From an uncultured Gemmatimonadota bacterium (GTDB lineage Bacteria; Gemmatimonadota; Gemmatimonadetes; Palauibacterales; Palauibacteraceae), in NCBI GenBank assembly GCA_964627425.1, contig CAZVIY010000011.1:7763-71762 (forward strand): a stretch of DNA of 64,000 nucleotides, given 5' to 3'. Within the stretch, counting starts at the first letter, position 1; every line of letters starts with the position of its first letter. The notes beneath the pieces are model-generated. The model was not told where the DNA came from. It made no database searches and saw only the letters and a program-made list of their open reading frames with translations. A program made the translations under genes and the position numbers. Below, piece after piece: positions 31,699 through 37,140 of this stretch.

Positions 31699-33426
31699 TC
31701 AGGATCCCGCCAGGTCCACCGTGGGAAGGAACTCCGGATCCCGCCGGACCCCGGTGGCCTGCTCGAACGCGAACGCGTACCCCAGGAGCCGGGCCTCGTC
31801 CCAGGCCCGCCCGTAGAAGCTGACCCCCACCGGCAGGCCGAAGACGTAGCCCGCCGGCACGGTGACGCCCGGATAGCCGGCGATGGCCCAGGGCGAATAG
31901 CTGGAACCGTGCCCGGAGTCGCCGTTCACCAGGTCGATGGGCCACGGCGGGCTCGACGTGACGGCGACCATGGCGTCCACGTCGTGCTCCCGGAAGGCGG
32001 CGTCGATCCCCTCCTCGCGGGACAACCGGAGGATCCTCTCCCGGGCCTCCCGGTACTCCGGGCTCTCCAGAGAATCCGTCTCCAGCGCCCGCTCCAGGAG
32101 GTCCTGCCCGAAGAACGGCATCTCCCGCTCGCGGTTCCGGCGGTTGAACTCCACCACCTCCTCCAGCGACGAGACGCCGGCGTCGCCGCCCCTCCCGGCC
32201 AGGTACCGGTCGATCCCGTCCCGGAACTCGTGGAGGAGGACGGTGAACTCTGCCGCGCCGTACTCCCCCAGGTGGGGCACGTCCGCCGCATCCACCAGGA
32301 CGGCCCCCGCCTCCTCCAGGGCTTCGAGGACCCCTTCGAAGAGCTCGTCGGTCTCCCCGGTGAAGCCGGACATCCTCGCCCGGGGCACACCGATGCGGGC
32401 TCCCTGCAGGGCGTCCGGCGCCAGGTGCCGGGTGAGGTCCGTCCGGGCCCCCTCCGGCGCCTCCCCGGTGACGGGATCGTCCGGATCGAAGCCGGCCATG
32501 GCCTCCAGCAGGAGGGCGGCGTCCCGGACCGTGGTGGCGAAGGGTCCGGCCGTGTCCTGGGTCTCCGCGATGGGCACGATGCCCGACCGGCTCACCGCAC
32601 CCACCGTGGGCTTCACGGCCACGCAGGAGTTGGCCGACGCCGGGCACATGATGGAACCGTTCGTCTCGGTCCCCACGGCCAGCGGCGCGTAGCTCGCCGC
32701 CACCGCGGCGGCCGAACCGGAGCTCGACCCGCAGGGGCTGCGGTCCAGGACGTACGGGTTCCGTCCCTGCCCTCCCCGGGCACTCCAGCCGGAGCTCGAC
32801 TCCCGGGACCGGAAGTTGGCCCACTCGCTCAGGTTGGCCTTGCCCAGGATCACGGCCCCGGCCGCCCGGAGCCGGGCCACCAGGTGGGCGTCCTCCGAGG
32901 CCCTCGTCCCCTCCAGGGCCAGGGATCCTGCGGCGGTGCTCATCCGGTCGCCGGTGTCGATGTTGTCCTTGAGCAGCACCGGGATGCCGTGGAGCGGCCC
33001 GCGGAGGCGGCCGGCCGACCGCTCCCGGTCCCGCCGGCGCGCGATGGCGAGGGCGTCGGGGTTCAGCTCCAGCACCTGCCGCAGCTCGGGACCGGACCGG
33101 TCCAGGTCCCGGATCCGCCCCAGGTAGGCCGTCACCAGCCCCACCGCGTCCAGCGCCCCGTCGGCCATCCGCTCCTGGAGCACGTCCACCGGGAGTCCCT
33201 CCAGTTCGAACGGCGGGACGGGGGCCCGCGAGGCCGCCCGGGGATCCGTCCCCCGGGCCGCACGCTCCTCCCCCGAGGATCGGGCCGCCGCGGACCCGGA
33301 CCCGGGCACCGCCGACAGGGCGAGTCCCGCGCCGCCCGCCACGGCCCGCCGGACGAAGGAGCGGCGGTCCAGCCCCCCGGGGCCGGGAGCCGGCGACGGG
33401 TCGGGCGACTCCGACCGCTCCGTCAC
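31699..33426 (-). CDS. Amidase-signature family amidase with Tat signal
   Basis: Start corrected to GTG 33426 (GTGA overlap with gdh stop). RRSFVRR signal, LHGIPVLLKDNI, GKANLSEWAN, GSSSGSA, GTETNGSIMCPA. Confidence 0.93.
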   Translation of the reverse strand: MTERSESPDPSPAPGPGGLDRRSFVRRAVAGGAGLALSAVPGSGSAAARSSGEERAARGTDPRAASRAPVPPFELEGLPVDVLQERMADGALDAVGLVTAYLGRIRDLDRSGPELRQVLELNPDALAIARRRDRERSAGRLRGPLHGIPVLLKDNIDTGDRMSTAAGSLALEGTRASEDAHLVARLRAAGAVILGKANLSEWANFRSRESSSGWSARGGQGRNPYVLDRSPCGSSSGSAAAVAASYAPLAVGTETNGSIMCPASANSCVAVKPTVGAVSRSGIVPIAETQDTAGPFATTVRDAALLLEAMAGFDPDDPVTGEAPEGARTDLTRHLAPDALQGARIGVPRARMSGFTGETDELFEGVLEALEEAGAVLVDAADVPHLGEYGAAEFTVLLHEFRDGIDRYLAGRGGDAGVSSLEEVVEFNRRNREREMPFFGQDLLERALETDSLESPEYREARERILRLSREEGIDAAFREHDVDAMVAVTSSPPWPIDLVNGDSGHGSSYSPWAIAGYPGVTVPAGYVFGLPVGVSFYGRAWDEARLLGYAFAFEQATGVRRDPEFLPTVDLAGS

Positions 33427-34856
33427 GGGAAGATCCTCCGCTGCCGGTACACGCGGGCGATCTTGTCGATGGCCACCACCAGCGAGGCAGTCCGAAGGTC
33501 GGTGTCGTGGGTCCTCGCGCATTCGCGGATCTCCCGGTAGGCGGTCACCATGGTCTCCTCCAGGCCGGAGTTCACCAGGTCCTCCTCTCCGGGGCCGTAG
33601 GCGACCTCCCGGACGGTGTCCTCGGGAAAGGTCCGGCCCGTGAGCTCCTCCACGGCCCGCAGGATCCCCTCGTTGGTGGCCTCCTCGAACCGCTTTCCCA
33701 TGCGTCCGTACCGGACGTGGGAGAGGTTCTTGAGCCACTCGAAGTAGGAGACGGTGACGCCGCCGGCGTTCACGAAAATGTCCGGCAGGATCATGATCCC
33801 GCGATCCAGGAGGATCCCGGCCGCCTCCATGGTGGTGGGCCCGTTGGCGGCCTCGGCCACGATCTTCGCCTGGATCCGCTCGGCGTTGTCCGTGGTGATC
33901 TGATTCTCCAGGGCCGCCGGGATGAGGATGTCGCAGTCCAGCTCCAGCGCCCGGTCGCGGCGGTCCAGGGTCTCGGCACCGGGGAACTCCGCCACCGAGC
34001 CGGTCTCCTCCCGATGGGCCACCACGTCGTCGACGTCCAGCCCCCCGGGATCCCGGATCGAGCCTCCGACCTCGGCCACCCCCACCATCCGGGCGCCCGC
34101 CTCCTCCAGGAACCTGGCCGCGTGATAGCCCACGTTGCCGAGCCCCTGCACCACGAACGTCTTTCCCTCGATGCCGGGGTCCAGGCCGAGCGCCTCCATG
34201 TCCTCCTCGGAGCGGCACGCCTCGGCCAGGCCGTAGTAGACCCCTCGACCGGTGGCCTCCGTCCTGCCCCGGACCCCGCCCAGCGAGATCGGTTTGCCCG
34301 TCACGCATCCCTTGGCGTTCAGCTTCCGGTCGGCCAGGGCGGTGTAGGTGTCCACGATCCAGCCCATCTCCCGCCCACCCGTGCCGTAGTCCGGCGCGGG
34401 GACGTCGCTCCCCGGGCCGATGAACCCCTTTCCGTACAGCTCGTAGGTGAGGCGGCGGGTGATGCGTTCGAGCTCCGCCTCGCTGTAGTCCGAGGAATCG
34501 ATGGCCACCGCGCCCTTCGCCCCGCCGAAGGGGACGTCGACGACGGCGCACTTGTAGGACATGAGCGTCGCGAGGGCGACCACCTCGTCCTCGTTCGCCC
34601 CCGGAGCGTAGCGGATCCCGCCCTTCACCGGGAGCATGTGGTGGCTGTGCTGGGCGCGCCATGCCTCGACCACCTCGATGCTCCCGTCGTCCCTCTTCAC
34701 CGGAAAGCGGAAATGCACCACGTTGTTGCACGCCCGGATCTGTTCCAGGAGGCCCGGCCGATGGTCGGTGTATGCGGAGGCCTCCCGGAACGCTCGATCG
34801 ACCTGTGCCGAGAACTCGAACCCGCTCATCGTCGACTCATCCTCCCTTCCCGTCAT
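33423..34856 (-). CDS. gdhA: Glu/Leu/Phe/Val dehydrogenase (glutamate dehydrogenase type)
   Basis: KGGIRY, KCAVVDVPFGGAKG, DVPAPDYGT, GRTEATGRG, QGLGNVG, EAANGPTT, NAGGVTVSYFEW; start may be 34829. Confidence 0.93.
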   Translation of the reverse strand: MTGREDESTMSGFEFSAQVDRAFREASAYTDHRPGLLEQIRACNNVVHFRFPVKRDDGSIEVVEAWRAQHSHHMLPVKGGIRYAPGANEDEVVALATLMSYKCAVVDVPFGGAKGAVAIDSSDYSEAELERITRRLTYELYGKGFIGPGSDVPAPDYGTGGREMGWIVDTYTALADRKLNAKGCVTGKPISLGGVRGRTEATGRGVYYGLAEACRSEEDMEALGLDPGIEGKTFVVQGLGNVGYHAARFLEEAGARMVGVAEVGGSIRDPGGLDVDDVVAHREETGSVAEFPGAETLDRRDRALELDCDILIPAALENQITTDNAERIQAKIVAEAANGPTTMEAAGILLDRGIMILPDIFVNAGGVTVSYFEWLKNLSHVRYGRMGKRFEEATNEGILRAVEELTGRTFPEDTVREVAYGPGEEDLVNSGLEETMVTAYREIRECARTHDTDLRTASLVVAIDKIARVYRQRRIFP

Positions 34857-35241
34857 CTCCCAGCTCGGCCACCACCGTCACCCGCCACCGGTGGTCGATC
34901 CACACCCCCAGGGTACGCGGGCACAGGGCCCAGTCGTGGACGACGCCGGCGGCCCGCTCGATCTGACGCCGGTGCTCGGCATCGTCCACGGGATTGCCCA
35001 GGCAATCGTGATGCCCCGCCACGATCACACACTCGTGGTGACGGCGCTCGGCCAGGAAGGCAGCGTGATGCCGGGCCCGGTCCCTCTCCTCCCCTCCGTC
35101 CAGGAGGGTGCCGTCCGGCCCCGGCAGCGTGATGGTGTCCACGCGATCCAGCGCCAGCGCGTCGTCGATCCATCGCAGGAGGGGCCACTGGACACGGCCG
35201 TCCACGCAGTTCAGGGCGAGGGCGAAGGGCTCGTCGTTCAT
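34837..35241 (-). CDS. Small beta-carbonic-anhydrase-like protein
   Basis: Start corrected to MNDEPF at 35241; Zn-ligand pattern NCVDGR ... DTITLPGPD ... GHHDCLGN. Confidence 0.75.
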   Translation of the reverse strand: MNDEPFALALNCVDGRVQWPLLRWIDDALALDRVDTITLPGPDGTLLDGGEERDRARHHAAFLAERRHHECVIVAGHHDCLGNPVDDAEHRRQIERAAGVVHDWALCPRTLGVWIDHRWRVTVVAELGDDGKGG

Positions 35242-35398
35242 GGGACCTCGTCCGCTCGGAGGATCACCGCCTGACTCCTCCCGGATGATCCGGAGCCGTG
35301 GACGTCGGCGCAACGGCCGGCTCCGGGGAGGCGGCAGCGGGCACACCGATGCACCCGTGACGGACCGTCGCGGGGAGGGGAACGATGGAGGGGACAGG

Positions 35399-35655
35399 CG
35401 AAACCCCCGGGTCGCGGCACGTCGCGCCCGGGGGCTTCACTGCGCTGGCGAGCTCGGATCCTCGGTCTGGCGTCGCCCTCGTGCGGCGACCGGATCCTCC
35501 CTCTTGGGTCAGGCGTCCCTGGACTCCTCGGGACTGCGGCTGCCTCCAGCGACCTGGCAGCCGGCTCGACGGGGCCAAACTCCCGACGAGCGCCTGCCGG
35601 CCCTCGCGGACCGGCCGAGCCCGCCCTGGAGTGGTCGGCCCTCTCCCGAGCGGGA
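35399..35655 (-). ncRNA. Putative structured ncRNA, copy A (about 255 nt; family not recognised)
   Basis: Near-identical core to copy B, own promoter at 35660-35687, 5' hairpin, GCGA-capped hairpin, 3' GC hairpin with UUU; covarying substitutions versus copy B. 5' end is estimated. Confidence 0.7.
35404..35434 (-). terminator. 3' hairpin of copy A (weak intrinsic terminator candidate)
   Basis: On minus strand CCCCCGGGCGCG-acgtgc-CGCGaCCCGGGGG followed by only UUU. Confidence 0.5.
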
Positions 35656-35659
35656 CCGC

Positions 35660-35687
35660 AAGGTAGGCCGTCCGACGGAGGTGTCAA
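35660..35687 (-). promoter_or_regulatory. Sigma70-type promoter of copy A
   Basis: TTGACA (35682-35687), 16 nt, TACCTT (35660-35665). Confidence 0.65.
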
Positions 35688-35740
35688 CCCGCTGGGCCGC
35701 ACCCTGGGCCGCACCTCCGCCGGGCGCCCGGATACATACA

Positions 35741-36132
35741 CGAAACCCCCGGGTCGCGGCACGTCGCGCCCGGGGGCATCGCTGCGCTGGTGAGCTCGGA
35801 TCCTCGGTTTGGCGTCGCCCTCGTGCGGCGACCGGATCCTCCCTCTTTCCCTTCTCTCGGCTCGGCGTGCGAACTCCACGCGGTGCCCGGGCCGAAACCC
35901 GAACGGTCCTCGCTTCATCGCTCGACCGCGCAAGCGTCGAGTCAGGCGTCCCTGGATTCCTCGGGACTACGGCTGCCTCCAGCGACCTCGCAGCCGGCTC
36001 GACGGGGCCAAACTCCCGACGAGCACCTCCGGCCCTCGCGGGCCGGTCGACCGACCCTCGCGGATCGATCTAACCGGAGCTCTCGCACCGGCTGAGCCCG
36101 TTTCGGTTCAGTCGACCTTCCTCGAAACGGGC
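35741..36132 (-). ncRNA. Putative structured ncRNA, copy B (about 390 nt, with a 93-nt internal insertion)
   Basis: 35741-35847 matches 35399-35505 and 35941-36024 matches 35508-35591; perfect 10-bp inverted repeat 36096-36105/36123-36132 at the 5' end; own promoter. Confidence 0.72.
35746..35776 (-). terminator. 3' hairpin of copy B
   Basis: Same hairpin as 35404-35434, followed by UUUCGUGUAU. Confidence 0.5.
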
Positions 36133-36136
36133 CGTC

Positions 36137-36164
36137 AATATACCGTCCCGAGCCGAGCTGTCAA
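36137..36164 (-). promoter_or_regulatory. Sigma70-type promoter of copy B
   Basis: TTGACA (36159-36164), 16 nt, TATATT (36137-36142). Confidence 0.75.
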
Positions 36165-36234
36165 CGGGGCGGCCTCGCCCAGTTGGGACGGGTTCGGACG
36201 GACTCCGAAACCGATCTCTTTGTGCGGCAATCGG

Positions 36235-37140
36235 TTACGCTTCTCGCCCCTCTCCGGAGCCCCGTTCGGATCCGCCTCCGTTCCTCGCCGATGGCACCGC
36301 CGACGGACCGTCGGCCGGCGTCCCGGCGGCCGGATCACCCGTCCCGGACGAGGCGGATCCGCCCCCCGTCCCCCCCTCCTCGACGAGCGGCACGAAGCGG
36401 ACCGGGTCCAGGGGGACGCGGGTGACGGCGCCGTCGTCGGCCTTCTCCACCAGCAGGAGCCGCTGGGTTCCGCCCTGTGGTCCCACCGGGATCACCATGC
36501 GTCCGCCCGGCGCGAGCTGCTCCACCAGGGGGTCGGGCACCTCCTCCGGAGCCGCCGTCACCACGATGGCGTCGAAGGGAGCCCGCTCCTCCCAGCCGAA
36601 CCAGCCGTTGCCGATCCGGACCTCCACCGAGCCGTAGCCCAGCTCCGCGAGGCGCCCCCGCGCCGCCCGGGCCAGCTCGGGCAGGATCTCCACCGAATAG
36701 ACCTCCCGGGTGATCTCGGCGAGGACCGCGGCCTGGTAGCCGGACCCGGTGCCCACCTCCAGCACCCGGTCCCCGGGCTCGAGCTCCAGGAGCTCGGTCA
36801 TCCGGGCCACGATGTACGGCTGGGAGATGGTCTGGTCCTGGCCGATGGGCAGGGGGCGATCGGCGTAGGCCAGCCCGCGGAACCGCTCGGGCACGAACCG
36901 GTGTCGCGGCACCCGACCCATGGCCGCCAGGACCAGGGAATCCTCAACGGGCGGCCGCCGGGCCCTCTCGTCGGAGAGGCTCTCCACCAGCGCCCGCCGC
37001 TGCTCCTCGAAGTCCTGGTTCGCCGGGTCGGCGTCCTGAGCCCGGGCGCAGCTCACCGATCCCGCCCACAGGACGGCCAGCAGGCAGAGGAGGCCCGTCC
37101 CCTTCCTCACGCAGGGCCCACCGATCCCCCGGAGGGTCAT
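36235..37140 (-). CDS. pcm: Protein-L-isoaspartate O-methyltransferase with signal-peptide-like N-terminus
   Basis: Start corrected to ATG 37140 (ATGA overlap). VPRHRFVP, AYADRPLPIGQDQTISQPYIVARM, VLEVGTGSGYQAAVLA, PFDAIVVTAA. Confidence 0.93.
   Translation of the reverse strand: MTLRGIGGPCVRKGTGLLCLLAVLWAGSVSCARAQDADPANQDFEEQRRALVESLSDERARRPPVEDSLVLAAMGRVPRHRFVPERFRGLAYADRPLPIGQDQTISQPYIVARMTELLELEPGDRVLEVGTGSGYQAAVLAEITREVYSVEILPELARAARGRLAELGYGSVEVRIGNGWFGWEERAPFDAIVVTAAPEEVPDPLVEQLAPGGRMVIPVGPQGGTQRLLLVEKADDGAVTRVPLDPVRFVPLVEEGGTGGGSASSGTGDPAAGTPADGPSAVPSARNGGGSERGSGEGREA

Follow-up and report, generated by a model that had tools for sequence, protein, structure and literature searches.

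Tandem sibling small RNAs (sRNAs) are known from Pseudomonas (PrrF1/PrrF2) and Escherichia coli (OmrA/OmrB). CsrB, RsmY, and RsmZ are protein-titrating multi-hairpin RNAs of 100–370 nt, often encoded as paralogues, with repeated GGA motifs in their loops, and the 6S and Ms1-type RNAs, which bind RNA polymerase, are abundant, structured, and transcribed from strong promoters, with two paralogues in some bacteria. Published accounts of sibling sRNAs cover the NmsRs of Neisseria (PMC5362039) and OmrA/OmrB (PMC13473878). The locus described here lies in a 64-kb stretch of DNA, referred to below as the window, and holds two paralogous RNA units, which we designate u1 and u2: By analogy, their arrangement resembles that of the tandem sibling sRNAs, and their size and architecture resemble those of CsrB/RsmZ or 6S RNA. 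We regard them as a new family of RNA, although RNAs of this general kind are familiar; those defining features of the protein-binding RNA families that could be tested were absent.

As in the tandem sibling sRNAs, the two units are adjacent paralogues near metabolic genes, with near-identical blocks beside a divergent part: Repeats of 93–96% identity lie next to each other in a noncoding region, and each unit has promoter and terminal hairpin motifs of its own that are present and conserved, with a weak −10 element in u2 and a U tract of 3 nt. They differ from these sRNAs in being two to four times longer, in a predicted fold that includes GNRA loops and a multi-way junction and leaves hardly any of the RNA unstructured, and in showing neither an obvious seed nor a long U tail for Hfq. 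With the 6S and Ms1-type RNAs they would share a structured RNA, a strong promoter, and the occurrence of two paralogues, but they lack the rod with a central bubble that distinguishes 6S RNA.

Both units are located on the minus strand within positions 35399–36164 (table 1), in a gap of about 1 kb between the stop codon of the PCMT gene (36237–36235) and the start of a putative carbonic anhydrase (CA) gene at 35241, both of these genes also being on the minus strand. A first-pass annotation of this DNA had described the gap as noncoding and as containing predicted RNAs of about 255 and 390 nt with unit-specific 5′ ends, and our analysis arrived at the same gap, the same predicted lengths, and 5′ parts that differ between the units. 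The repeat blocks it had reported, 35399–35505 with 35741–35847 and 35508–35591 with 35941–36024, were recovered in place at 96% and 93% identity. The repeat finder returned 107 nt for the first and 95 nt for the second (35508–35602 with 35941–36035), and BLAST carried the second on to 35618/36050 with one indel, covering the CCGG(U/C)CC-GCGA-GGGCCGG hairpin of both units through which the similarity had been said to continue. With E-values of 1e-43 to 1e-46 (BLAST within the window), these repeats are beyond chance. The parts in common are the core, predicted to form a four-way junction and 93% identical between the units, and, at 96% identity, a 3′ domain consisting of a long hairpin and a GC hairpin followed by UUU; u1, and not u2, carries a 93-nt insert between the core and the 3′ domain. 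Covariance-model and BLAST searches found no third copy of the RNA in the 64-kb window.

Table 1. Coordinates of the two RNA units and neighboring features in the window.
Feature	Position	Strand	Basis or remarks
u1 RNA, ~390 nt	35741–36131	minus	fold, alignments
u1 promoter (candidate)	36137–36164	minus	TTGACA 36164–36159, 16-nt spacer, TATATT 36142–36137
u1 5′ hairpin	36131–36097	minus	predicted fold
u1 GAGA-loop hairpin	36091–36074	minus	predicted fold
u1 two GCGA-loop hairpins	36070–36049, 36046–36029	minus	predicted fold
u1 core junction	36028–35941	minus	H1 36024–35997, H2 35996–35970, H3 35967–35948
u1 insert domain	35940–35848	minus	alignment
u1 long hairpin H4	35845–35792	minus	predicted fold
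u1 terminal GC hairpin + UUU	35777–35741	minus	predicted fold
u2 RNA, ~255 nt	35399–35655	minus	fold; 93% identical to u2 copy of L004
u2 promoter (candidate)	35660–35687	minus	TTGACA 35687–35682, 16-nt spacer, TACCTT 35665–35660; read from sequence
u2 5′ hairpin	35657–35633	minus	predicted fold
u2 GCGA-loop hairpin	35614–35597	minus	predicted fold
u2 core junction	~35595–35508	minus	H1 35591–35564, H2 35563–35537, H3 35534–35515
u2 long hairpin H4	35503–35450	minus	predicted fold
u2 terminal GC hairpin + UUU	35435–35399	minus	predicted fold
12-nt perfect direct repeat, two copies of GGUGCGGCCCAG	35692–35715	minus	repeat finder; abuts u2 −35 upstream
Hairpin at end of PCMT gene	36208–36236	minus	overlaps PCMT stop codon; lies between PCMT and u1 promoter
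C-rich, G-poor spacer after u2 hairpin	35314–35398	minus	C 0.49, G 0.27; resembles Rho-utilization (rut) site
Promoter-like block of CA-gdh operon	35285–35313	minus	TTGCGC 35313–35308, 17-nt spacer, GATCAT 35290–35285
Putative CA gene (Pro_CA_2, PF20393)	34837–35241	minus	Pfam E = 3e-32
Glutamate dehydrogenase (GDH) gene	33423–34856	minus	second gene of operon
Amidase gene	31699 to ~33310		after GDH

Open reading frames (ORFs) crossing the region have a GC content of 0.70–0.75 at all three codon positions, as opposed to 0.45–0.53 at the second and 0.86–0.92 at the third position in the flanking CA, GDH, and PCMT genes, and because GC is flat across the codon positions we take the region to be noncoding. 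Long ORFs on both strands are usual at 72% GC. A protein-coding reading was rejected on the flat codon-position GC and on the loss of the AUG of the longest sense ORF in L004, a contig of a relative with a CA-like protein 87% identical to that of the window.

The first-pass annotation had been unable to assign the RNAs to a known family, and this held in database searches: No family of Rfam 15 reached its gathering score in the 64-kb window, ARAGORN found no tmRNA, and 6S RNA gave no Rfam match even at E-values up to 10, the predicted fold being multi-domain. A permissive Rfam scan (E up to 10) of the 1.4-kb region and the homologous loci returned sub-threshold matches only, the best of them to Twister-sister (RF02681) on the minus strand at 36010–36081, with 23.1 bits against a cut-off of 34.

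The TTGACA-16 nt-TAnnTT motif annotated upstream of each unit is present on the minus strand in both cases. The u1 promoter matches at 11 of 12 positions and is the sole promoter-like site returned by the promoter scan in 2 kb, where shuffled sequences led us to expect 0.1; its hexamers are identical in L005, a contig with a CA protein 99% identical to that of the window. The u2 promoter was not called by the scan because its −10 hexamer, TACCTT, matches at three of six positions only, and L004 has TTGACA-16-TATCTT at the corresponding position, so that we count the u2 hexamers as kept. At their 3′ ends the units share the annotated GC hairpin and UUU within an identical 37-nt sequence, GCCCCCGGGCGCGACGUGCCGCGACCCGGGGGUUUCG, with a predicted 13-bp GC stem that reaches into the UUUCG tail; the terminator scan made no call here because only three U follow the stem. 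The 12-nt direct repeat upstream of u2 might be an operator, a local duplication, or a second terminator for u1. It has no counterpart in L004, where its position is taken by another GC hairpin, CCGGGCCUC...GAGGCCCGG.

Loci of relatives were reached through the CA-like protein, with five close clusters in a collection of 5.8 billion proteins, and for one further contig through GDH. The contigs L001–L010 come from SRR26668040, SRR26668056, SRR26668003, SRR9010616, SRR21412983, SRR28149503, SRR28149500, SRR26081727, ERZ28654005, and JGI 3300040785. Every contig from a relative whose CA identity is at least 59% has the RNA directly upstream of this gene, an adjacency that is biased because the homologues were found through the CA gene. 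L004 contains a partial u1 and an entire u2 in tandem, and L008 (CA 59%) contains a u1-like 3′ half including the insert domain. L005 carries one unit only (L005:600–1164), in which the promoter and 5′ part of u1 are joined to a core of mosaic makeup and to a u2-type junction and downstream flank; the repeats may have recombined and so caused a real deletion, or the assembly may have taken this path across them. Short-read assemblies break at repeated sequence: Four contigs (L006, L007, L009, and L010; CA ~60%; GDH 77%) start inside the terminal hairpin, and three with a CA protein identical to that of the window (L001–L003) break inside it. These breaks fall in the same 37-nt hairpin in independent short-read assemblies (Logan, ENA), which indicates at least two RNA copies in the genomes of the relatives. 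Metagenome-assembled genomes (MAGs) of this lineage may tend to lose the RNA locus at contig ends, a possible cause of its absence from genome collections.

Between the window and L008, nucleotide identity reaches 90% in the RNA (3′ 165 nt) but falls to 70% in the CA gene and to 66% in the spacer that separates the two; between the window and L004 it is 93% in u2 and 73% in the spacer. The RNA sequence is thus under stronger constraint than the neighboring coding DNA.

Both units fold better on the minus than on the plus strand, by 11–19 kcal/mol: For u2 the predicted energies are −159.8 kcal/mol (z-score −3.40) versus −148.8 kcal/mol (z-score −1.89), and for u1 −208.2 kcal/mol (z-score −3.49) versus −189.1 kcal/mol (z-score −3.16). 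This is in keeping with G-U pairs and GNRA loops (GCGA and GAGA) that are confined to the minus strand. In the parts shared by the units, RNAalifold predicts a hairpin capped by a GCGA loop, a four-way junction with the hairpins H1, H2, and H3 and AGG(U/C)/GCCU as its closing helix, and H4 as a long irregular hairpin with an inner GUCGCC/GGCGAC stem flanked by the pairing of GGAUCC with GGAUCC. For the 3′ domain, 33 pairs are predicted, and none is lost in any of six sequences (198 of 198 pair cells are standard), with one compensatory change (U-A to C-G, in L008) and five one-sided changes through G-U; this covariation is not significant, as 82 of 500 shuffles score at least as high, and the core has zero covariation among four near-identical sequences. 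In the covariance check proposed in the first-pass annotation, the models found only the two copies in the window, and covariation fell short of significance in the 3′ domain and was absent in the core. The fold therefore rests on thermodynamics, and that of the core is a thermodynamic prediction.

In the partial u1 of L004 (L004:1–100), the core is far more diverged from that of the window, and substitutions break the pairing of helix H3. As this core is about two-thirds identical to the core of the window, with the rest of the RNA at about 93%, the 93% similarity of the u1 and u2 cores within the window suggests gene conversion in the lineage of the window or else decay of the L004 u1 copy. 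Stems and loops are conserved alike over the whole length, and GNRA loops number three or four, features that suggest contacts with a protein or a tertiary structure.

Downstream of u2, the 3′ end of the CA gene overlaps the start of the GDH gene by 20 nt (34837–34856), an overlap that is the same in L004 and suggests translational coupling. The order CA, GDH, amidase is kept in L004, whereas for more distant relatives, with their short contigs, only the CA–GDH pair is seen. The one call made by ARAGORN was a tRNA-Ala (anticodon CGC) on the minus strand at 33191–33261, where the amidase frame encodes its N-terminal portion with the signal peptide; we consider this probably a false positive in GC-rich sequence, and the Rfam tRNA model stayed below its gathering score. 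The spacer between the RNA and the CA gene is C rich and G poor in seven loci (C 0.47–0.55, G 0.17–0.29) and variable in length (55–163 nt) and sequence. In all seven, TTGCG[CT]-17-[GA]ATCAT is found between the RNA and the CA start, about 45–50 nt before the start codon, with invariant spacing, conserved hexamers, and a spacer that varies in sequence. Conserved hexamers at a fixed spacing with free spacer sequence are the signature of a promoter, and on this ground the CA-GDH-amidase operon most likely has a promoter of its own, which would make the RNAs separate products rather than a leader; the RNAs themselves most likely end at their hairpin, with Rho as a backup.

Taken as a whole, the locus is best explained in our view by two sibling genes of one uncatalogued structured noncoding RNA, an explanation to which we give somewhat better than even credence; that u1 and u2 are independent noncoding RNA genes we consider, from their sequence features, rather likely. 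Each unit would have a minus-strand promoter of the sigma-70 type to itself, near consensus in u1 and weaker in u2, and each transcript would end at the 13-bp GC hairpin and UUU, with Rho acting on the C-rich spacer downstream of u2 probably backing up termination. The predicted layout comprises a 5′ module of hairpins, which varies and bears GNRA tetraloops, the four-way-junction core, H4, and the terminal hairpin; u1 would keep the extra 93-nt domain, seen also in a distant relative, and u2 would be the shorter paralogue. In silico, this supports the new family of independently transcribed multi-helix RNAs that the first-pass annotation had proposed, with RNA ends and transcription read from sequence motifs, and none of the refutations named there that could be tried in silico came about. 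That annotation had also offered a cis-regulatory role for the CA-gdh operon as its alternative. One or both units would then be a 5′ leader or attenuator, like a riboswitch or a Rho-dependent leader, that senses a metabolite such as a carbon or nitrogen signal and controls read-through beyond the hairpin and C-rich tract into CA-gdh-amidase. Like leaders with Rho attenuation or riboswitches (e.g., the mgtA leader), the RNA lies immediately upstream of the operon and is co-oriented with it in seven loci, its multi-helix junction core resembles an aptamer, and the hairpin, its few U, and the C-rich, G-poor tract after them have the look of a Rho site under regulation. A leader, however, should have no promoter between it and its gene, and here the promoter-like block, identified by motif, intervenes in all seven loci, which argues against a pure leader. 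The spacer is also unconserved, no pairing in competition with the terminal hairpin came to light, both units have a putative promoter to themselves, and no riboswitch family or known aptamer was matched, so that we hold such a leader to be unlikely. Repeated DNA of a selfish or neutral kind, such as an element of the REP or MITE type or an intergenic sequence duplicated recently and devoid of RNA function, would account for the contig breaks inside the terminal hairpin, which imply at least two copies per genome, but two copies are enough to explain these breaks, and two adjacent ones, rather than the many dispersed, promoterless copies expected of such elements, are what the 64-kb window contains. 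Terminal inverted repeats are absent, conservation exceeds that of the neighboring coding gene, and the promoters are conserved; we judge this very improbable.

Scarcely credible, in our estimation, is a self-cleaving ribozyme related to twister-sister within u1. Two adjacent GC hairpins and their flanks in u1 weakly resemble the ribozyme model, which is the top sub-threshold match (E = 0.036 for a search of 1.4 kb) and recurs in L005; the E-value, however, rises to 0.34 when 13 kb are searched, the score lies under the gathering cut-off, one helix of the model is replaced by non-pairs, one conserved block is matched at four of eight nucleotides only, and the match is confined to u1-specific hairpins and absent from u2. 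Two sibling RNA genes could also work as classical base-pairing sRNAs of the PrrF1/PrrF2, OmrA/OmrB, or NmsR type that control mRNAs through a shared single-stranded seed, and such a mode would fit the tandem arrangement of the paralogues, the promoter and terminal hairpin motifs in each, and the combination of shared modules with a 5′ part that diverges; sibling sRNAs that control central metabolism are documented (PMC5362039, PMC13473878). Against it stand the length of 255–390 nt, nearly all of it base-paired in the predictions, the U tail of only 3 nt, and the lack of any visible extended, conserved, single-stranded C/U-rich seed, and we think it a minor prospect. Pairing of the RNA sequence GGAGGAUC with GAUCCUCC in the CA 5′ UTR (8 nt) was rejected as a candidate, as it is not conserved in L004, L008, and L009. 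For the sibling RNA genes that we favor, a role in trans as regulatory RNAs linked to carbon and nitrogen metabolism may be envisaged, in which a folded scaffold with purine-rich, Shine-Dalgarno-like CGAGG(A/G) motifs would bind and titrate a protein or a small ligand. RNAs this large and conserved usually bind a protein or ligand, and the size of 255–390 nt, the conservation of stems and loops, the GNRA loops, the multi-way junction, and the near-consensus promoter point to such a partner-binding scaffold over short-seed antisense action; this trans-acting mode is the most likely one, but as a specific claim it remains tentative, well short of an even chance. That the RNAs form a new class of large, tertiary-structured RNA, in which a GNRA-decorated four-way junction senses a carbon or nitrogen metabolite or binds a global regulator and so controls glutamate and CO2 metabolism, seems to us quite doubtful.

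The CGAGG motif occurs eight times in u1, or about 20 times per kb, against 3.4–3.6 per kb elsewhere in the window, often at the borders of loops and stems. Dinucleotide shuffles of u1 have a mean of 2.7, and 7 of 2,000 reach eight, but the motif was picked after looking, and correction for all 5-mers gives p ~0.05; u2 shows no such enrichment. As multi-hairpin paralogues with a repeated purine-rich, Shine-Dalgarno-like motif, the units recall CsrB, RsmY, and RsmZ, from which they differ in that several CGAGG copies straddle the borders of stems and loops and that GGA is enriched in neither unit (u1 has 12, whereas its shuffles average 13.5). A reading as a CsrA sponge is unsupported because of this lack of GGA enrichment, and tblastn with E. 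coli CsrA found no CsrA gene in the 64-kb window. We treat the CGAGG repeats of u1 as a lead toward a repeated protein site, not as evidence for one.

The family has a very narrow distribution, having turned up in only a few metagenomic contigs. The conserved 23-mer GGTCGCCGCACGNGGGCGACGCC had no exact match in the GTDB species genomes or in the JGI contig set, and a terminal-hairpin pattern gave eight hits among metagenome contigs and two among viral contigs, all of which we reject as chance matches, since they lie inside coding sequence and none is recognized by the RNA profile. Nothing was returned by a six-frame composite query for spurious ORFs over the RNA copies, nor by a 231-aa ORF of the window searched against 1.84 billion representative proteins. 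In GTDB genomes, the CA-like alignment found relatives of at most 43% identity only (Altiarchaeales, a Gemmatimonadota MAG, and others), none of them with the RNA. GDH relatives at 67–68% identity (L027–L029) have another gene context and no RNA, and the best named GDH relatives, at 66–68% identity, are MAGs of Rhodothermaceae and Longimicrobiales. By the RNA 23-mer and by the linked gene alike, the lineage is absent from the 185,579 GTDB species genomes.

The significance of the RNAs is limited by this narrow distribution as found so far and by their being known here from sequence alone. If they are real transcripts, they would constitute a new family of mid-sized structured RNAs with a sequence kept more strictly than that of the neighboring enzyme genes, and their binding partner could reveal how glutamate dehydrogenase and the balance of carbon and nitrogen are controlled in these bacteria. 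Should the new class set out above be real, it would represent either a riboswitch-like sensor coupled to Rho or a new RNA–protein regulatory system in an uncultivated high-GC lineage.

It should be added that the PCMT protein encoded upstream of u1 has a long Gly/Ser/Pro-rich C-terminal tail (region 36235–36420), and that the DNA coding for this tail contains a perfect 12-nt inverted repeat, 36267–36278 with 36350–36361.
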